Shown here piece by piece: positions 2,502 to 30,406 of a DNA stretch of 64,000 nt (the first letter of the stretch is position 1; every line of letters begins with the position of its first letter). Location of the stretch: positions 69,310 through 133,309 of the forward strand of contig LCHW01000002.1 in the NCBI GenBank assembly GCA_001000675.1, read 5' to 3'. Under the pieces are notes generated by a model, which did not search any database, was not told the DNA's origin, and saw only the letters and a program-made list of their open reading frames with translations. The translations under genes were made by a program, and so were the position numbers. The DNA comes from Candidatus Wolfebacteria bacterium GW2011_GWE2_44_13. Lineage in GTDB: Bacteria > Patescibacteriota > Minisyncoccia > UBA6257 > UBA9933.

Positions 2502-2577
2502 GGTGATTCCTTCCGTGTGCAAAGATAAAGATACTGAGTATTGTATACAAATTTGTAAGAGATAAGTCAACAATAAA

Positions 2578-2611
2578 TTAAAACTCCTCCGCCAATTGGC
2601 GGAGGAGTTTT
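2578..2611. terminator. Bidirectional intrinsic terminator (aaaactcctccgccaattggcggaggagtttt) shared by the convergent genes 2070..2501 and rpsT.
   Basis: Perfect 12 bp stem flanked by an A-run and a T-run. Confidence 0.7.
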
Positions 2612-2614
2612 AAT

Positions 2615-2881
2615 TTATTTTGCAGGAGTTGCGATCTTCTTTGAAAGTCGTGACTTTAAGCGGCTTGCCTTGTTCTTCTTGATAATGTTGGTCTTAGCAG
2701 CTTTATCAAGCTTCTTGAACACTGTCGAAAGCTGTTTTTCAGCTGCCTCAGGATTCTTTGCGATAACAAGTTTCTTATATTCCTTGATGGATTCCTTTAA
2801 CGTGTCTTTCTGTTTAACGTTACGGATCTTGCGTCGGATATTCTGGCGATTTGCCTTTTCTGCTGTCTTTGTATTTGGCAT
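2615..2881 (-). CDS. rpsT: 30S ribosomal protein S20.
   Basis: 88 aa, MPNTKTAEKANRQNIRRKIRN... Lys/Arg-rich, typical of S20. Confidence 0.85.
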   Translation of the reverse strand: MPNTKTAEKANRQNIRRKIRNVKQKDTLKESIKEYKKLVIAKNPEAAEKQLSTVFKKLDKAAKTNIIKKNKASRLKSRLSKKIATPAK

Positions 2882-2904
2882 AGTGTCTGATAAATAGTGT
2901 CTCC

Positions 2905-2933
2905 ATACTACATTTTTTGGCCAGGGATGTCAA
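2905..2933 (-). promoter_or_regulatory. Putative rpsT promoter. Minus strand reads TTGACATCCCTGGCC (-35), 17 bp spacer, then TAGTAT (-10).
   Basis: Hexamers read on the minus strand. The extended -35 TTGACATCCCTGSC is shared with the promoter at 3590..3618. Confidence 0.4.
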
Positions 2934-2985
2934 CCGTACGCGCAGGAAACAAAAAACCGACAGATGCCCCTGTCGGTTTAAAGTA

Positions 2986-3525
2986 TTAAGAAGCGCGATT
3001 TTCTCGTTTAGTAAAAATATCAGCGCACTCCGCGCTCCCAAAGTCAACAAACGAATCAAACATTGCATGAAGTTTTAGGTCTGTGTCGCGAAGAAAGGAA
3101 GCTCCTTCAACTCGAACGCCTTGTTCGTGAAGATATTGTACGAGTGGTATGTAATCACCGTCTCCGCCGACAAGTATAGCAACGTCAATTCTAGAGGCGG
3201 TTCTAACCGCTGCAATTGCAAGGTCAAGATCGCAATTGCCCTTCATTACGCCTCCCGAATGTGCTTTAAGGGGCTTAGTGATTACTTGAAAGCCAATGTT
3301 GTGCATTACTTCAAAGAAAGCATTTTTAGAATCATCTTCCAGAGAGACATCGAAAAATTGTGCAGAGTGTAATGTCCTCTTTCCCAGTAATTTTGCAAGA
3401 ATTTTGCGGTAGTTAATATGTCCTGCGGGATAATTGCGCTTGGTGCTCTTGTAGACGTTTGCTGCGTCAACAAAGATAGCAACTCTAGCAAGTTCAGTTC
3501 GGTGAATGTAGGCTTGTGAGCTCAT
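2986..3525 (-). CDS. NYN-domain / LabA-like (PIN-like) protein.
   Basis: VAIFVDAANVY..., ILVGGDGDYIPLV and DLDLAIAAV motifs are typical of the NYN/LabA family. Start set at internal ATG 3525 with a GAGGAG RBS. The promoter motif lies inside the longer ORF-track extension. Confidence 0.65.
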   Translation of the reverse strand: MSSQAYIHRTELARVAIFVDAANVYKSTKRNYPAGHINYRKILAKLLGKRTLHSAQFFDVSLEDDSKNAFFEVMHNIGFQVITKPLKAHSGGVMKGNCDLDLAIAAVRTASRIDVAILVGGDGDYIPLVQYLHEQGVRVEGASFLRDTDLKLHAMFDSFVDFGSAECADIFTKRENRAS

Positions 3526-3589
3526 TCTAAAATACTCCTCTAATGTGGTGTATATCCCGAGGGCATTCGGGTTGGGAAAGAACATCCTC

Positions 3590-3618
3590 ACTATGATGAA
3601 TATTGGCAGGGATGTCAA
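3590..3618 (-). promoter_or_regulatory. Putative promoter of the NYN gene. Minus strand reads TTGACATCCCTGCC (-35), 17 bp spacer, then CATAGT (-10).
   Basis: Same extended -35 as the rpsT promoter, seen directly. Confidence 0.4.
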
Positions 3619-3665
3619 TATAAACAAAAAGGCCGCAACTTAGGGGTCGCGGCCCGAGAACACGC

Positions 3666-4031
3666 TCAATGATTGGTCTTGCAGATAGTGCGCATGAGTG
3701 TGGTTGTAATAAGCTGGTAGTCGAGTAACCACCACCCGCCTCCAGCTAATCCGCCAAAGAGGATGTCGCCAGAGAAATAGCCGACAGTGATGCCAATAGC
3801 AACGTCTCCAACAAAGAGGAGGAGGAAGTCAAAATGGATACAAAGAAAGAGATGCTTAAAGAACAGGAGTGAGATCTTCTTATTATGGCGATAAGCCTCA
3901 AAAAGGCAGAGGGCAAAACGAACGCCAAGAATAATAAGAGCGACGGCACAGATCCACTGAAAGATATGGAAATGTAATGCGATTGCGGAGCCAGTAAGGC
4001 TTGCCGCACATACAGCCAGAAATAGCTTCAC
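3666..4031 (-). CDS. Hypothetical polytopic small membrane protein.
   Basis: 121 aa with 3-4 hydrophobic segments. A hairpin terminator sits at 3628..3660 on the minus strand. Confidence 0.4.
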   Translation of the reverse strand: MKLFLAVCAASLTGSAIALHFHIFQWICAVALIILGVRFALCLFEAYRHNKKISLLFFKHLFLCIHFDFLLLFVGDVAIGITVGYFSGDILFGGLAGGGWWLLDYQLITTTLMRTICKTNH

Positions 4032-4088
4032 GGCAAACCCTCCTATAGTGGTAGCGTTGGATTAAAGGAATCTGATTTAAGTACATCA

Positions 4089-4104
4089 AATATGCCGGCA
4101 TATT
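4089..4104. promoter_or_regulatory. Perfect 16 bp palindrome AATATGCCGGCATATT in the divergent promoter region upstream of ruvA. Candidate operator.
   Basis: Exact reverse-complement symmetry, overlapping a TTGACA on the minus strand. Confidence 0.3.
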
Positions 4105-4149
4105 GTCAATGGCTTTCTATGCAGTAGGGGATTAGGTATACTTAAAAAA

Positions 4150-4731
4150 ATGATCTACTCGCTAAAAGGAAACGTTATCGTAAAAAAAGGGACATGGGCG
4201 GTTATTGAAACGAACGGGATTGGGTTTCGGGTTGCTTTGGCGAGCCGTGATAGCGCTCAGCTTCCAGCTATTGGATCTATTGCGCAAGTATTTTGTTCGA
4301 TGGCTGTTAAAAAAGATGGCATAGAATTGTATGGGTTTTTAAGTGAGCGCGATCTGGACATGTTCGATTTACTAACCACTATTAGTGGGGTTGGTCCTAA
4401 AACAGCACAAACTATTCTTGGCGCAGTGGGGACGGATATGTTATTGGCGACCGTTGAGCAGAAGAAGACAGACACATTAGCAGAATTTCCAGGAATCGGA
4501 AAAAAGAAAGCGGAACGTATTATTTTAGAATTACGAGATAAGATTAAAAAAATGGATGCTGGAGAAGCGATTGAGTTTCACGAGGGAGATAAGGATGTAA
4601 AAGATGCGTTGAAGCAAATTGGATATAAACAAGGAGAAATAGATGAGGCGCTTAAGGCATTGCCGAGTGATTTACAGGGAACGGAGGTGCGCTTAAAAGC
4701 AGCGCTCAAAATAATAGGAAAGCATAAATAA
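4150..4731 (+). CDS. ruvA: Holliday junction DNA helicase subunit RuvA.
   Basis: N-terminal OB domain (IYSLKGNVI...GIGFRV), two HhH motifs (ISGVGPKTAQTIL; FPGIGKKKAERIILEL) and the C-terminal domain III. Confidence 0.88.
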   Translation: MIYSLKGNVIVKKGTWAVIETNGIGFRVALASRDSAQLPAIGSIAQVFCSMAVKKDGIELYGFLSERDLDMFDLLTTISGVGPKTAQTILGAVGTDMLLATVEQKKTDTLAEFPGIGKKKAERIILELRDKIKKMDAGEAIEFHEGDKDVKDALKQIGYKQGEIDEALKALPSDLQGTEVRLKAALKIIGKHK

Positions 4732-4736
4732 GAATC

Positions 4737-6065
4737 ATGGAAAAACTTTTTAAATGGGGGAGAAAAATAATACCAAAATCAATTTTTGAGTTTTTTCAGC
4801 CGGCGTATCATTTTCTCTTGGCGTTTGCAGGCGCAGCGCTGTATTGGTTTCCATCGCGAAAAATGACAGTCATTGGAGTAACAGGAACAAAAGGCAAAAC
4901 AACAGCATGTAATATGATTGCGCATGTCTTGCAGGAAGCAGGACATAAAACAGGGATGACAACCACCGTCAATTTCCGCATCGGCGAAAAGGTGTGGACG
5001 AATGAAGCAAAGCAAACCATGCTCGGGAGATTCCAACTACAGAAAATGCTGCGACGCATGGTAGAGGCAGGATGCGAATATGCGGTAGTGGAAACATCTT
5101 CAGAAGGTATCATGCAATTTAGGCATACGTTTGTTGATTATGACATTGCCGTGTTTCTAAATCTTTCACCTGAGCATTTAGATCGACACAAAGGGTTTGA
5201 AAATTATCGCGCAGCGAAGATGAAGCTGTTTAAAAAAATTGCAAATAAGGGGACGGGTATCGGAATATTTAACCTGGACGATGAACATGTCGAGCACTTC
5301 ATAGGGATTTCACAAGCTGCACAGTATGGATATACCGTATCGCATAAAAAAGCGCATGACGCAGATGCAGTACGACGCATTGTAGAATTAAAAAATATAC
5401 AACTAAGCGGAGCAGGGTCTGAATTTGACGTGAATGATGAGCATTTCATACTGCCACTCGTTGGGGCATTTAATGTGCAAAATGCAGGTGCTGTCATTTG
5501 TGTGGCGCTTTCACAACACATTGCCCTAGACCAAGTGCGAAAAAGTCTGGCAACATTTAAGGGTGTTTCAGGGCGCATGGAAATTGTGCCGAACGATAAG
5601 GGGTTCGCCGTAGTTGTGGATTACGCACACGAACCAAAGAGTCTTGAAGCGGTATATAAGGCAGCCACGGATTGTGATTTGAAACAGGCGGGCGGGAGAT
5701 TGATTGGCGTATTTGGGGCAACGGGTGGTGGGCGAGACAAATGGAAGCGTCCTGTTATGGGTGAGATAGCCGCATATTATTGCGACGAAATAATTCTTAC
5801 CAATGACGACCCATATGATGAAGATCAAAAAAGCATTATTGCCGATATTCGCGCAGGCATCGAACATGCGCCATTTATAAAAGGAAACATCCATGAAATT
5901 GTTGACCGACGGGAAGCTATTCGCACCGCGCTAAGCCTTGCGAAACCAGGAGATGCCATTGTGCTTACCGGCAAAGGAGGGGAGACAGTAATGGTTGTTG
6001 AAAATGAAAAACGAATTCCGTGGGATGAACGGAAGATTGTCGAAGAAGAGCTTGGAAGGTTGTAA
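4737..6065 (+). CDS. murE: Mur ligase family protein, most like UDP-N-acetylmuramoyl-tripeptide ligase MurE.
   Basis: GVTGTKGKTT P-loop, Mur ligase middle-domain motifs (DYDIAVFLNLSPEHLDRH) and C-terminal DYAHEP...TNDDPYDED. Confidence 0.75.
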   Translation: MEKLFKWGRKIIPKSIFEFFQPAYHFLLAFAGAALYWFPSRKMTVIGVTGTKGKTTACNMIAHVLQEAGHKTGMTTTVNFRIGEKVWTNEAKQTMLGRFQLQKMLRRMVEAGCEYAVVETSSEGIMQFRHTFVDYDIAVFLNLSPEHLDRHKGFENYRAAKMKLFKKIANKGTGIGIFNLDDEHVEHFIGISQAAQYGYTVSHKKAHDADAVRRIVELKNIQLSGAGSEFDVNDEHFILPLVGAFNVQNAGAVICVALSQHIALDQVRKSLATFKGVSGRMEIVPNDKGFAVVVDYAHEPKSLEAVYKAATDCDLKQAGGRLIGVFGATGGGRDKWKRPVMGEIAAYYCDEIILTNDDPYDEDQKSIIADIRAGIEHAPFIKGNIHEIVDRREAIRTALSLAKPGDAIVLTGKGGETVMVVENEKRIPWDERKIVEEELGRL

Positions 6066-6150
6066 TAATTACTTTTGACTTTTGAGTTGGCGAATGGTAT
6101 GAAAGAGGTAGTAAATTTACGACAACCCCTTACGTGTGCAAGGAGGCGAC

Positions 6151-6675
6151 ATGAATGGAAAGCAATATGACGCAATCGTGGCTTTCCCGTTTGGGAAAGC
6201 GGTTAGGCACAAGTCGGCCAATTGGCACATAGCCATGAGGGCAATAATACTTGCCTCCATACACAGTGTGCCTGTTGTGGCGCACGAAAGACTTCCCATA
6301 AAGACAATTGCACGCAAGTATGCAGAAGGTGCGAAAGTGCGGGAGTTGTCGATTGAGCTGATCGGCGGGGAAACGATTCTTGATGCGGCAGGCAATTTCT
6401 ATGCGTTTGCTGGGCGTGAGACGTGGAAGAATATCCTGCTCGTTTCGATGCCCTTTGTTTCGGAGCGCTGTGTTCGCGATATCGGGAAGGCGAGCGGGGG
6501 GAGATTTAACGTGACTCCTGAAAGTGAGCTGCAAAGGCTGAGTGTGTCGACTTGGTTTAGTCGCAGCGAAAAAAGGCTTTCTGCTCGACACCCGCTGATC
6601 TTCGGCATGAGCGAGTTTGGTTTACGCATGTTGCCATGGGCTGCCTATGAAGCCTTGGCAAAATCAAAGCCGTGA
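6151..6675 (+). CDS. Hypothetical protein, first gene of a GC-rich island.
   Basis: AAGGAGG RBS before ATG 6151. A hairpin plus T-run terminator follows at 6690..6712. GC content is clearly above its flanks. Confidence 0.5.
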   Translation: MNGKQYDAIVAFPFGKAVRHKSANWHIAMRAIILASIHSVPVVAHERLPIKTIARKYAEGAKVRELSIELIGGETILDAAGNFYAFAGRETWKNILLVSMPFVSERCVRDIGKASGGRFNVTPESELQRLSVSTWFSRSEKRLSARHPLIFGMSEFGLRMLPWAAYEALAKSKP

Positions 6676-6741
6676 GCGCAGGTGACGCACGAGCCCGCCC
6701 TTGAAAAAGGGTGGGCTTTTTTGTGGATAAAAAATGCTCCC

Positions 6742-11497: not shown

Positions 11498-11547
11498 GTA
11501 AATTGACAAAGTAGCACCCACGGTGCTACTTTGTTTTTAGTTCGTAA
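11498..11547 (+). repeat. Copy 1 of a perfect 50 bp direct repeat (gtaaattgacaaagtagcacccacggtgctactttgtttttagttcgtaa) containing a terminator hairpin.
   Basis: Identical to 14248..14297. Hairpin gtagcacc/ggtgctac plus T-run, immediately after the glyQS stop. Confidence 0.85.
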
Positions 11548-11576
11548 GATATTCATTTCTCTCATGGGGAGGCAAT

Positions 11577-12122
11577 ATGAGCCGAAGAAAAAAGGCGCGA
11601 AGGCGCATGGAAGACCGTAGTGGAGGAGGGGAAGAAGGTTTCCATTTCAGCAGATACACATTCAGAGCGATGCGGCAGCGGGAAAATACGCATTACTGCT
11701 TTGTCTGTGGCGGTAAATTCGGATTCACGCCTGGAAGACAGGGGGAGGTGGAGAACGAAAAGGATAACAAAGTCACTCTCAGAAATGAGTGGGGCGAAGA
11801 AGTGCTCCTGCGCGACGCGCTTAGGGACGCACGCCTCGAAAAGTATATTGCCCAGGATGTTCGGTTGCATGAGCAGATAGCCGAAAAGGCCGTGTGGCAG
11901 TTAATGCTTAACCACGCTGCCGATTTTGAGCATACTGCTGAATTCGTGCAGTGGTGCAAAGAGAACGGGTACATTGTGCTCCAGCGCAATCCAATGGAGC
12001 ACCACGACCCTATAGCGCATGCCAATGCGGTTGTTGGAGGAGCTGACCAACACATGTTTGTCAGTGATTGGTTGCGGGCAAGGGCTCCGCAGGGCTTCCC
12101 CTATAGGGTTACGATTACATAG
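11577..12122 (+). CDS. Hypothetical protein, GC-rich (possible CxxC zinc-ribbon element).
   Basis: GGGGAGG RBS before ATG. Terminator hairpin at 12130..12157. Composition distinct from neighbours. Confidence 0.5.
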   Translation: MSRRKKARRRMEDRSGGGEEGFHFSRYTFRAMRQRENTHYCFVCGGKFGFTPGRQGEVENEKDNKVTLRNEWGEEVLLRDALRDARLEKYIAQDVRLHEQIAEKAVWQLMLNHAADFEHTAEFVQWCKENGYIVLQRNPMEHHDPIAHANAVVGGADQHMFVSDWLRARAPQGFPYRVTIT

Positions 12123-12225
12123 GGAACAAGCCGCCGATGCAATCGGCGGCTTTTTTGTGAGAGAGGTTTGCATGTAACGACTTGCGATGTCGTTACAGTA
12201 AACCCAAAGATTTACGGATAGGAAA

Positions 12226-13368
12226 TCATTTAATTTCGATAGGCTGCCCATCCTTAATGATACGCATAACAAGGCTTCTCTCCGCCTCGCAATCATTGTT
12301 GAATGTGATTGTTCCACCAATACCATTGTATGTATGTAATGTGTTTATGAGGTAGTTGGAAACGGACTCAGGTGTTTGCTCTGGTGCGTTGGCAAGGCCG
12401 ACGGCTAAGAGACGAATGCCGTCATACGTATTTGCCACAACCGGGGAGGCTGGTTGGTTGTATGTTTCAGTGAAGCGTTTTTTAAACGCAGCGGCTTCAG
12501 CTGAATCGCTAGTGGTCGGCGTAGCTGCCCACGTATAGCCGGCATACGCAATAGCATTAACCAGAGAGCGGGTTTTTATCTGAGCATTTTCAACGGTCCA
12601 GTTATCGCTGACAATAGGTTTAGAGAATTTAAGTTGGGCGATTTGCTTGAGCATTGGCTCTGTTGAGTTACTTGCATTAATCGCAACAAGAAAATCTATT
12701 TGATTTTGGAGCTCTTTGAGACGAGTTGCCTGCGAGCGAAAATCGGTAACGCTTTGCTCGAATAACTCGGTAGAAACGATTGTGCCACCTTGTTGCTTCA
12801 GAATGGCCTCGATAGATTTTTTCATAGAAACCCCGTAGTCGTTGTTAACGGCTAAAAATGCAATGCGTGGATTTTCAACCTGCGCGAGGAGATAGTTCGA
12901 GATTGCCACAGCATAATCTTCTGCCTTTAACGATATACGGCAAGTAAGCGGACTTCCGTCTGTATAAGAGGGGAGAACCGTATTACTGTTCATTGTAAAA
13001 TTTCCATCCTTTACAATAATCGGTGGCAAGATGCCAGATGCAGGCGCCCCCTCAATATCAAAAAATTTGATACTCCGTAGCTTGAGCGCCTCATAGGCAG
13101 GGATGGCTCGCTTTGGATCCCATGCATAATCTTCGACTATCAGTTCAAGCGGCCTGCCGTTAATGCCGCCCTCATTATTGATATCTGCGACAGCCATTTT
13201 GGCTGCGTTGAGCTGGATCTCTCCGAGAGAGGAGAACGCTCCAGTAGGAAAGGCAACAAAGCCGACTTTAACCGAATCTTTCGGAGAAGAATTTTTGTAA
13301 AAAACAGCGCCAGCGATTACTCCCGCCAGCAAAAGAGCCACTATCAGTAGAGTTATTTTTTTATTCAT
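12226..13368 (-). CDS. ABC-transporter substrate-binding protein, type-1 periplasmic-binding fold (Leu/Ile/Val-binding family-like). Membrane-anchored and orphan.
   Basis: N-terminal signal anchor. VKVGFVAFPTGAFSSLGE...GGINGRPLELIVEDYAW is typical of LivJ-like PBP1 proteins. No permease or ATPase genes adjacent. Confidence 0.7.
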   Translation of the reverse strand: MNKKITLLIVALLLAGVIAGAVFYKNSSPKDSVKVGFVAFPTGAFSSLGEIQLNAAKMAVADINNEGGINGRPLELIVEDYAWDPKRAIPAYEALKLRSIKFFDIEGAPASGILPPIIVKDGNFTMNSNTVLPSYTDGSPLTCRISLKAEDYAVAISNYLLAQVENPRIAFLAVNNDYGVSMKKSIEAILKQQGGTIVSTELFEQSVTDFRSQATRLKELQNQIDFLVAINASNSTEPMLKQIAQLKFSKPIVSDNWTVENAQIKTRSLVNAIAYAGYTWAATPTTSDSAEAAAFKKRFTETYNQPASPVVANTYDGIRLLAVGLANAPEQTPESVSNYLINTLHTYNGIGGTITFNNDCEAERSLVMRIIKDGQPIEIK

Positions 13369-28808: not shown

Positions 28809-28955
28809 GGCGTGATATAAATTAAGAATACGTATTACTCTATAGTATAGAGAAAAAGCGAGACAATGTGAAATAAACGCATTGACAGGGTATAGGGGTA
28901 GTGTTATATAGAAGATAGATACTATAAAAATCCATACAGAAAGAAGGTGATTTGC

Positions 28956-29498
28956 ATGGCGATGTTCCCGCAACGGGAAAAAGAAAAAGAGCAGCAAGAA
29001 CTTCCACTTATCTTTTCGCAGAGTCTGATTAGCGTAAGTGCTGACTTGTACAACGCATTGACGCGAGCAGCTGTCCGTAAAATGGGCGAGAAGCAGGTGA
29101 AAAATTTGCAGCTCAGTCTGTTACATCGGGTCGAACAGGAATTCATCCAGGAAAATCCCGAAGCAACGACGTTTGTCGTGCCACGGAAAGCGAGTGAGGT
29201 GTATCTACACCTCGTTGTGCTCGCAGTGGAAGATTGTCTGGATGCGTGGGAGCGACAAGCGCGCATAAAAGTACTCTTTCCGATTCACGGCACCACCGCA
29301 GTACAGAAAGAAGGTGAGCAGGATAGATTCCTGAGTGCTGTTCAGGAGGCAAGCGGAATCTACGGCCATATAAATGGCGGAGGCCTGCACCTCAAGGTGT
29401 CGTTATTCGGTGGAGATATTCCCGCCGAGCAAGTGAATCCCGACGAGCGACGGGGGAGATTGTACAAATATTTCGCCCGAAAAGGAGAAATACCATAA
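28956..29498 (+). CDS. Hypothetical protein, GC-rich.
   Basis: GAAGGTG RBS before ATG 28956. Terminator hairpin at 29500..29526. Confidence 0.45.
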   Translation: MAMFPQREKEKEQQELPLIFSQSLISVSADLYNALTRAAVRKMGEKQVKNLQLSLLHRVEQEFIQENPEATTFVVPRKASEVYLHLVVLAVEDCLDAWERQARIKVLFPIHGTTAVQKEGEQDRFLSAVQEASGIYGHINGGGLHLKVSLFGGDIPAEQVNPDERRGRLYKYFARKGEIP

Positions 29499-29616
29499 GG
29501 CCGCCCCAAAAGGCGGCCATTTTATTAGGGTTTTTAGGGTGTTGACAAAGTTTATTTTTCCTATATAGTGAAAAGGCTTCGCTTTGACATATAAGAGATG
29601 AGTGTGTTATAGCCTC

Positions 29617-29644
29617 TTGACAAATAAAATTTATCTGTTATAAT
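29617..29644 (+). promoter_or_regulatory. Near-consensus sigma70-type promoter TTGACA-N16-TATAAT driving the candidate ncRNA.
   Basis: ttgaca at 29617..29622 and tataat at 29639..29644, seen directly. Confidence 0.5.
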
Positions 29645-29650
29645 AAATTT

Positions 29651-29867
29651 ATAACGATAAGGAAATAGAGAGAAAGACTATTTGGTTCTGTGGGTTCTTA
29701 AGGAATTTCTTTTAGGCTCAGGATGTTCTGGTTCCGGCTGGGGCACTCCTCGAAGAAATTCTAAATTTCTTACTGGTGTAAGATTTCAAAAAATTTTTAC
29801 ACCCACAGAACCAAGGAGTGTTTCTCCGGTGAAAGTAACTAAAACCCCCGCGCAAGCGGGGGTTTTA
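29651..29867 (+). ncRNA. Candidate structured small RNA (~215 nt). A 13 bp closing helix encloses a multi-stem domain and is followed by an intrinsic terminator. Identity unknown.
   Basis: Perfect 13 bp helix (tggttctgtgggt at 29683..29695 pairing with acccacagaacca at 29801..29813). Internal 10 bp helix (ggaatttctt/aagaaattct) and a 6 bp hairpin (tcttac-tggt-gtaaga). Terminator cccccgcgcaagcggggg plus T-run at 29845..29866. No credible ORF. Confidence 0.4.
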
Positions 29868-29874
29868 GTATATA

Positions 29875-30273
29875 ATGAAGAATATGAAAAAGGAAAATAT
29901 CCCGCAGATCATAAAAGATGTCGGCTTTGATTTTAGCTGGGATGAGAAAAAAGTTTGGGCGTTGAACATACCGATAACGGAAATGGATATTTCCGAATTA
30001 GAGTGGCACTTTGATATACCGTTTCATTGGCATGGAGACGAAGTATATAATTTATCTTCACGTGAGATATTAGGCGACCCCGCGAGATACAAGAAAGAGT
30101 ATGATCGGACAATGAACGCCGATCTACAATACCCGATCGATATTATGCAGAATAAAGGAAGATGGCTGATATTGGACGGTCTGCATCGATTGATGAAAGC
30201 ATCAATTCTGGGAATGGGAAAAGTGAATGTCCGTATCGTTCCAAGAGAAAAAATATCCGAGATCGCGAAATAA
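29875..30273 (+). CDS. Hypothetical protein with a ParB/sulfiredoxin-like nuclease motif.
   Basis: LILDGLHRL resembles the ParB/Srx DGxHR motif. 132 aa. Bidirectional terminator at 30281..30318. Confidence 0.45.
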   Translation: MKNMKKENIPQIIKDVGFDFSWDEKKVWALNIPITEMDISELEWHFDIPFHWHGDEVYNLSSREILGDPARYKKEYDRTMNADLQYPIDIMQNKGRWLILDGLHRLMKASILGMGKVNVRIVPREKISEIAK

Positions 30274-30406
30274 ATTTACAAAATACCCGGTCCTATTAAT
30301 AGGACCGGGTATTTTGTTTGAATTCTGGTATAAACTATTGCGTGAGAATACTGGATTCCGACCTGCGCCGGAATGACAGATGCATTCTTCCTGTCGCATG
30401 TCGCTT

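Follow-up and report, generated by a model that had tools for sequence, protein, structure and literature searches.

A probable structured RNA gene convergent with pilB in Candidatus Wolfebacteria and related genomes

Introduction

What is encoded by the intergenic segment in front of a ParB-like gene of Candidatus Wolfebacteria bacterium GW2011_GWE2_44_13: a leader of that gene, or an RNA in its own right? The segment lies in a stretch of 64,000 nucleotides (nt) of contig LCHW01000002.1 (positions 69,310 to 133,309 of the forward strand), which was analysed as a whole and is called the window here; coordinates refer to it unless a related locus is named. An earlier note on this stretch had proposed a novel structured small RNA (sRNA) with a consensus promoter and an intrinsic terminator or, instead, a cis-acting leader of the ParB-like gene. 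To our knowledge, bacteria of the candidate phyla radiation (CPR, or Patescibacteria) have tiny genomes in which little DNA is to spare, and apart from the universal non-coding RNAs hardly any have been characterised in them. We compared the window with related loci and contigs (numbered L001-L107) and found 14 distinct copies of the RNA in Wolfebacteria and related genomes, reaching Harrisonbacteria. The segment is very probably a genuine, functional structured RNA gene, and a leader is very improbable.

A conserved three-way junction

The RNA has a core of ~160 nt within a predicted transcript of ~215 nt, counted from the proximal promoter, and all its parts are given here on the plus strand. 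Its fold is a three-way junction with a closing helix (P1), a long arm (P2, consisting of P2a, an asymmetric internal loop and P2b) and a short side hairpin (P3). P1 is a 26-nt, 88% complementary helix of a 5' strand at 29670-29695 and a 3' strand at 29801-29826; 23 of its pairs are modelled, of which 11 are changed on both sides among the copies (97.5% of cells paired). Its perfect 13-bp core (29683-29695 with 29801-29813), the helix described in the earlier note, is real and conserved, and at 3 of the 13 pairs both partners have changed. P1 is joined by J1/2 (UCUUAA, 29696-29701; U-rich, 6-7 nt in most copies and ~0-1 nt in L107) to P2a, whose 5' strand (GGAAUUUCUUU, 29702-29712) forms 11 pairs with its 3' strand (GAAGAAAUUCU, 29752-29762). 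Four of these pairs are changed on both sides (e.g., from U-A to C-G in L088), and several U-A pairs have become U.G, a change that is compatible with the plus strand only.

The internal loop has a 5' side of variable sequence (UAGGCUCA, 29713-29720; alignments A6 and A7) and a 3' side, UC (29750-29751), that belongs to the string CUCCUC (29746-29751), invariant in all 14 copies. The distal hairpin P2b (29721-29749) stands on an invariant GGA/UCC base with a bulged C29746 and consists of a 9-bp, G.U-rich helix (29724-29732 with 29737-29745) closed by a UCCG loop (29733-29736; the variants found are UCCG, UUCG, UUUG, UCAG and UUAG). Three of its 12 pairs are changed on both sides, 98.8% of cells are paired, and its tandem U.G/G.U is near-invariant (U.G in 14 of 14 copies, G.U in 13 of 14, unpaired in L107). 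J2/3 (AAAUU, 29763-29767) leads to P3 (UCUUAC-UGGU-GUAAGA, 29768-29783), the 6-bp stem of which (29768-29773 with 29778-29783) is invariant in 13 of the 14 copies with a loop that varies (UGGU, UGGC, UCCU); at this position L107 has an unrelated 11-bp hairpin and an extra hairpin. The linker J3/1 (29784-29800), A/U-rich, single-stranded and variable in length, returns to P1. In the modelled fold P2 can stack coaxially on P1. The 5' leader of the transcript (29652-29669) differs in length and sequence between copies, with ~30 extra nt in L088.

Helices had also been expected inside the 13-bp helix, and they are there, the first measuring 11 bp rather than 10 and the distal one being rich in G/C and G.U pairs. 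A 6-bp hairpin placed after the long-range helix exists as well, P3 being the best identification, but it lies inside that helix.

For the window transcript the minimum free energy is -91.4 kcal/mol (z = -8.2), a stability that no sequence out of 200 dinucleotide shuffles attained. Diverged copies folded singly gave the same architecture (z = -5.4 to -9.8).

The sample available for covariation comprised a tight cluster of 9 members and ~5 diverged lineages. RNAalifold, run on a plain MAFFT alignment of 13 sequences and so independent of the covariance model to which alignments A6 and A7 were fitted, recovered P1 (23 bp), P2a (11 bp), P2b (12 bp) and P3 (6 bp), with 17 of the 52 pairs compensatory. 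In the 14-sequence model alignment 97.8% of the pair cells were canonical, compared to 42-56% when the partners were slid by 1-3 columns, and 19 of the 52 pairs were changed on both sides (3-8 when slid; mean of 7.6 in shuffled alignments). None of 500 shuffles matched the observed value on any of five covariation measures. Covariation was seen in P1, P2a and P2b, and P3 was invariant in 13 copies; the RNA has the covariation-supported structure expected of a stand-alone sRNA.

The strand is indicated by several measures. The covariance model (R1) matches true copies only, and on the proposed strand its 13 building copies score 133-186 bits, compared to 30-53 bits for their reverse complements; L107, which was outside the training set, scores 65.7 bits and its reverse complement 30.3 bits. 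The fold beats that of the reverse complement by 10-20 kcal/mol (12.8 kcal/mol for the window copy), and many G.U pairs are conserved, which favours the plus strand. These results bear on the extremely improbable reading that the locus is an element of the DNA itself (a miniature inverted-repeat transposable element, a site of recombination or a palindrome bound by a protein) and not an RNA. The 26-nt inverted repeats around about 105 nt and the position in an interval that is a hot spot of gene insertion would suit such an element, but the sequence is single-copy within the window and keeps a fixed chromosomal position across genomes, its G.U wobbles maintain pairs on one strand only, with the plus strand strongly preferred, and its dedicated promoters and terminators are conserved.

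Some alternative pairings were noticed in the same region. The string AAUUUCUU is present twice (29704-29711 and 29764-29771), and both copies pair with AAGAAAUU of the P2a 3' strand (29753-29760). A small alternative hairpin formed from AAUUUCUU and AAGAAAUU (I20) competes with P2a, so that a conformational switch might be imagined; in L096 and L097 a comparable alternative pairing can form via G.U pairs only.

Promoters, terminator and coding potential

The consensus promoter reported earlier is present with 12 of 12 matches and a TG extension (TTGACA-16-TATAAT, 29617-29644, plus strand). It is the sole perfect consensus match in the 64-kb window (chance expectation 0.05) and the strongest promoter in its neighbourhood; its spacing predicts a transcription start near 29651-29653. 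Of the 13 copies scanned, 12 have a TTGACA-N16-TATAAT promoter with 12 of 12 matches, 12-67 nt ahead of the core; in L094 the promoter has 11 of 12 matches. As a correction to the earlier note, there are two conserved promoters in tandem, the distal one being at 29542-29569 (plus strand; TTGACA-16-TATAGT, 11 of 12 matches). This second upstream promoter, with 11 of 12 matches, was likewise found in 12 of the 13 scanned copies (it is absent in L096), and its -10 box is TATAGT in the close group and TATATT in the diverged group. Between the two promoters lies a third conserved TTGACA box (29584-29589, plus strand; direct repeat D4), invariant in alignment A2, with a weak -10 partner (TGTTATAGC). 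In L107, which was read directly, we found a TTGACA-N17-TATATT promoter and a U run after P1.

The predicted Rho-independent terminator has a U tract and is a hairpin at 29838-29869 (plus strand), in which 29838-29851 and 29856-29869 form a perfect 14-bp stem around a GCAA loop; a simple terminator scan missed it because its T run is just 4 long. Terminators of the close group are GC hairpins with a GNRA loop (GCAA, GAAA or GUAA), and L092 shows a double change from C-G to A-U. L096 has its own different hairpin followed by U6, and in L097, L100, L102 and L107 a U run comes immediately after P1. Each of the 13 scanned copies ends either in a terminator hairpin or in P1 and a U run. Thus the RNA has its own promoter and its own terminator, kept across homologues, as a stand-alone sRNA gene does. 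The two tandem promoters, of the sigma-70 type, would drive the RNA, and the intrinsic terminator would end the transcript. In L101 (385-475) an insertion of ~36 nt lengthens the stem of the terminator hairpin, with the RNA core unchanged.

No conserved open reading frame (ORF) was found in the RNA, in line with the earlier statement that the ~215-nt segment holds no credible one. An 82-codon frame with a TTG start is broken in homologues by single-nucleotide insertions or deletions in J3/1, and its 82-amino-acid translation has no Pfam match; a 13-codon frame beginning with ATG at 29723 has lost the ATG in L097, L100 and L102. A small peptide or type I toxin was considered and rejected, because none of the ORFs is conserved.

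Distribution and genomic position

Contigs of close PilB relatives (79-89% identity) keep the genes of ribosomal protein S16, a KH-domain protein, PilB, a variable segment, RNase J and transketolase, and an RNA homologue was found in every one of them (nhmmer E = 1e-64 to 1e-76). The RNA is also present in L096 and L097 (PilB 61-62%; nhmmer E about 1e-20) and in L107, a Harrisonbacteria contig (PilB 56%; 65.7 bits, E = 2e-17 with the covariance model), where both outer neighbours of the RNA/pilB pair are also different. A metagenome scan with a pattern of invariant strings retrieved 7 contigs, all 7 being true homologues: L099, L100, L101 and L102 are new distinct copies, and L098, L103 and L104 duplicate L088, L097 and L099. 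The contigs L083-L087, which are from the same organism and identical to the window over the intergenic region, were left aside as uninformative. An origin from a phage or virus found no support in phage records and viral contigs: with blastn the phage records matched the promoter region only over short AT-rich stretches, and a pattern scan of viral contigs gave 2 matches, both false positives. In L103 an exact repeat of 2089 nt at an offset of 2093 (2535-4623 and 4628-6716) doubles the RNA and its flanks; it is probably an artefact of assembly or storage, because L097, another assembly from the same organism, has one copy.

In the window the RNA (plus strand) lies in the order RNase J-like beta-CASP enzyme (minus), ORFan183 (plus), RNA, ParB-like protein of 132 amino acids (plus), PilB (minus), KH-domain protein (minus) and ribosomal protein S16 (minus); ORFan183 is the name used here for the upstream gene of 183 amino acids (28947-29498). 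The ParB-like ORF spans 29875-30273, with an annotated start at 29884, and the RNA terminator stops 6 nt upstream of it, which is the typical layout of transcription attenuation and would suit a leader or riboswitch of this ParB/Srx-like gene. The comparison of loci speaks against this. The RNA occurs without the ParB-like gene and without ORFan183 in L092, L093, L097 and L107, and in these four loci no co-oriented gene of any kind follows it. Conversely, the ParB-like protein has 1185 relatives at E <= 0.001 (64-78% identity for the best 120 of the 1185), and at the 82 ParB-like loci sampled (80 genome loci together with L081 and L082) no similarity to the RNA was found by nhmmer or blastn, nor by the covariance model in the 81 to which it was applied. 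None of the 82 loci shares the gene order of the window, the median gap upstream of ParB-like genes is 44 nt (a co-oriented upstream gene often overlaps), and a conserved alternative antiterminator pairing was not found in the RNA. A leader function for the ParB-like gene, which was the alternative offered earlier, is for these reasons very improbable; that gene is a highly conserved, positionally mobile small gene and, at the window locus, a lineage-specific insertion.

The neighbour that does not change is pilB. The RNA is convergent with the pilB 3' end, on the opposite strand, in all 14 distinct loci, including L107 and the 4 distinct loci to which the RNA pattern by itself had led; in L092, L093, L096, L097 and L107 about 0-30 nt separate its end from the pilB stop codon. 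Such constancy would be expected of a cis element linked to pilB, in which convergent transcription, a shared bidirectional terminator or antisense pairing to pilB read-through tunes the type IV pilus ATPase. However, in the window the 399-nt ParB-like gene and a separate strong hairpin (30278-30317) intervene between the RNA and pilB, another gene is inserted there in L091 and L094, and the RNA is unchanged in each case. Neither a terminator nor transcriptional interference needs a covarying three-way junction or an invariant sequence of 160 nt, and the adjacency might be merely inherited, since the space between the genes offers very little room for a rearrangement breakpoint. We therefore regard a cis role at pilB as improbable, and retain the reading of the locus as an independent gene, which would produce an abundant, stable, trans-acting structured RNA.

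Strength of conservation

Within the close group the RNA core is 95.1-98.8% identical to that of the window. In the same pairs of genomes, PilB is 78.5-88% identical at the protein level and 70.6-77.7% at the DNA level, and the third codon positions of pilB, which are saturated between the compared genomes, are 38.5-47.1% identical. As the identity of the core is far above that of pilB DNA and of its third codon positions, nearly every nucleotide must be constrained, including loops and linkers, which within the close group are as conserved as the helices. The RNA is conserved about as tightly as ribosomal RNA, and conservation over its whole length in the close group fits contacts over the entire RNA surface. 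In the next clades the identity falls to about 65%, with the fold retained. The J1/2 and J3/1 linkers differ in length and sequence between copies, and a conserved single-stranded seed was not found in the RNA.

Comparison with known RNAs

A search of the window and of 8 sister loci with Rfam 15 (4227 covariance models) at gathering thresholds gave no match. At E <= 10 the RNA core matched only generic long-hairpin miRNA models (16-20 bits, with thresholds of 80-180), and all matches in an E <= 10 scan that included the terminator were driven by the terminator (e.g., Chlorobi-1, 25.9 bits with a gathering threshold of 50, matching the terminator hairpin only). The proposal of a novel structured sRNA is upheld to this extent, no Rfam 15 family being assigned at gathering thresholds or at E <= 10, and a description of an RNA like this one was not found in the literature searched.

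6S RNA (ssrS; RF00013) is a known RNA of similar size and layout. The core of ~160 nt, with two long irregular helices flanking a large asymmetric region and a hairpin on its 3' side, follows the general layout of 6S RNA, the strong tandem promoters recall promoters P1 and P2 of E. coli ssrS, and by analogy the RNA may share the abundance and the protein binding of 6S RNA. In a decoy of this kind P1 and P2 would stand in for the duplex arms, and the junction for the bubble, of an open promoter, and the sigma-70 holoenzyme would be sequestered. An alternative hairpin of GGUGUAAGAUUU with AAUUUUUACACC (I13) might even serve as a bubble-collapse helix, of the kind that a passage in PMC8876501 describes for 6S-1 RNA of B. 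subtilis. By inspection of the sequences, I13 is not kept in L096 or L097. The 5' side of the supposed bubble measures 6-7 nt, and in L107, where it is ~0-1 nt, P1 is continuous with P2 and an open bubble is absent. The large central bubble unpaired on both strands that defines 6S RNA was not found; this RNA instead has a short 5' bubble strand and a genuine three-way junction. The 6S model of Rfam was silent even at E <= 10 in three scans. Moreover, in 6S RNAs the shape is better conserved than the sequence; in this RNA the sequence itself, at 95-99% identity, is highly conserved, and not the shape alone. We consider a 6S-like decoy of RNA polymerase improbable.

Two further RNAs share features with it. 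The signal recognition particle (SRP) RNA (4.5S, Bacteria_small_SRP RF00169, or the three-way junction of the S domain) is also rod-like, has its most conserved nucleotides in internal loops near the tip of the long arm and is conserved at a housekeeping level, and the close group is superficially similar to the CAGG...GCAC of helix 8. In the diverged copies, however, CAGG and GCAC are lost (UCGG; UCUC, CUUC or UUUC), the distal helix has 9 bp and a UNCG-like (UYNG) loop whereas that of SRP RNA has 3 bp and a GNRA loop, and the order of the arms is reversed with respect to SRP helices 6 and 8. The SRP models of Rfam gave no match in the gathering and E <= 10 scans. Bacterial Y RNAs (YrlA) likewise enclose a structured module within a long stem, in which the 5' end is paired to the 3' end, and are presumed scaffolds for protein binding. 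In contrast to them, this RNA has no Rfam match to the family and no tRNA-like module (ARAGORN), and a gene for Rsr/Ro was not among the called genes of the loci examined.

The closest likeness is to the class of lineage-specific orphan structured sRNAs (e.g., Chlorobi-1 and Bacteroidales-1 in Rfam), with which it shares a stand-alone gene of ~100-250 nt with its own promoter and intrinsic terminator, a covariation-supported fold and a narrow phylogenetic range. It differs from them in being unusually strongly constrained in sequence and in having the strongest promoter of its neighbourhood. We regard it as a new RNA family inside a familiar category, that of lineage-specific structured sRNAs of unknown function.

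Mode of action

In our preferred explanation the RNA, as an independent gene product, acts in trans by virtue of its fold and serves a conserved protein as partner, scaffold or decoy; we put the chance that it acts by binding a protein at about even. We infer such a role because conservation spans the whole surface, because it peaks at the junction-proximal helix ends, the GGA/UCC and CUCCUC internal loop and the tandem U.G/G.U, and because the single-stranded linkers, which are the working parts of a base-pairing sRNA, are the most variable. The likely recognition surface would comprise the junction-proximal ends of P1 and P2a, the internal loop with GGA/UCC and CUCCUC, and the near-invariant tandem U.G/G.U of P2b. 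The RNA seems to be neither a base-pairing regulator nor a cis-regulatory leader.

Regulation by base pairing, in which an exposed conserved segment pairs with target mRNAs in trans and tunes their translation or stability, is nevertheless a rival, albeit a rather unlikely one. The stand-alone layout with promoter and terminator is usual for bacterial sRNAs, and two candidate segments are at hand: P3 with its 5' flank (AUUUCUUACU), in which AUUUCUUACU and GUAAGA show no covariation and are the same in 13 of the 14 copies, and the anti-Shine-Dalgarno-like CUCCUC, invariant in 14 of 14, a string that we take to resemble the 16S rRNA 3' end. Both candidate seeds are already paired inside the conserved fold, P3 is swapped for an unrelated hairpin in L107, and the truly single-stranded linkers are the least conserved parts, all of which argues against such a function; conservation over 160 nt also goes far beyond the need of a short seed. 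A duplex-energy scan of 65 translation-initiation regions of the window, a test of low power, gave no outlier, its top match being a self-overlap of the terminator palindrome.

Several points weigh against a protein-binding RNA gene as we propose it. The independent covariation events are few, since only ~5 diverged lineages stand beside the tight cluster of 9, and alignments A6 and A7 were shaped by the model's own structure. Both the transcript and the protein-binding role are predicted from sequence and fold. Base-pairing seeds could instead lie in the P3 stem, which is invariant, together with its flank (AUUUCUUACU), and in the anti-Shine-Dalgarno-like CUCCUC; and that the RNA always converges with pilB could indicate an action in cis or as an antisense RNA.

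A more specific form of the protein-binding proposal is tentative: the RNA may be a subunit or regulator of an unrecognised housekeeping ribonucleoprotein specific to CPR bacteria of the class Paceibacteria, held at an rRNA-like level of conservation as essential. Examples within this proposal would be a functional replacement of 6S RNA on a different architecture, or an RNA tied to the type IV pilus machinery, on which CPR episymbionts rely.

The RNA is unlikely to be peripheral, because it has the only perfect promoter in 64 kb, a covariation-supported fold and a rate of evolution far slower than that of the adjacent ATPase gene. The family is now well defined: 14 sequences are at hand, together with a consensus structure and a covariance model that works, so that CPR metagenomes and metatranscriptomes can be screened for it and the RNA can serve as bait for its partner. 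It also draws attention to an insertion hot spot for small genes of unknown function, the segment from pilB to the RNase J-like gene.

Neighbouring genes and further observations

Candidatus Wolfebacteria bacterium GW2011_GWC2_39_22 has a protein identical to the ParB-like protein of the window, which has no Pfam match. Relatives of the ParB-like protein, including those at the loci found by tblastn (52-74% identity), occur in CPR bacteria and in metagenome-assembled genomes labelled as DPANN archaea, and the co-oriented gene upstream is SecA in 4 of 14 tight cases. Right after the RNA terminator (29871-29884) a TATAAT box stands 7 nt before the annotated ATG of the ParB-like gene; in L091 and L094, which have another gene inserted there, the terminator is likewise followed by a TATAAT of this kind. 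Genes inserted after the RNA terminator may be expressed as leaderless mRNAs or by read-through. The hairpin at 30278-30317, an 18-bp palindrome with A and T runs at its flanks between the ParB-like gene and the pilB 3' end, is probably a bidirectional terminator for these two convergent genes.

The interval from pilB to the RNase J-like gene (28998-30406 in the window; L088-L097) is a hot spot in which small hypothetical genes, variable between the loci, flank the invariant RNA on either side, a pattern that recalls the insertions beside tRNA or transfer-messenger RNA (tmRNA) genes; ARAGORN found no tRNA or tmRNA gene in the whole 64-kb window. A word-index search for relatives of ORFan183 found only itself. 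A protein of L090 (2736-3371, minus strand), encoded at the corresponding place upstream of the RNA, is 50% identical to ORFan183. In L088 (9471-10034), L091 (6684-7229) and L094 (6280-6666), in all three on the minus strand, this slot is taken by another family, with proteins of ~180 amino acids. The alignment of the two families is collinear but marginal (hhalign E = 0.01, probability 4%), and neither has a Pfam domain. Proteins of this slot were rejected as an obligatory partner of the RNA, being missing from several loci that carry it.

In L097, and among the relatives only there, a reverse transcriptase (RVT_1) lies beside a bAvd accessory protein ~3 kb from the RNA (11534-12940), a pair that looks like a diversity-generating retroelement. 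The GC skew is positive across the entire window (1-64000).

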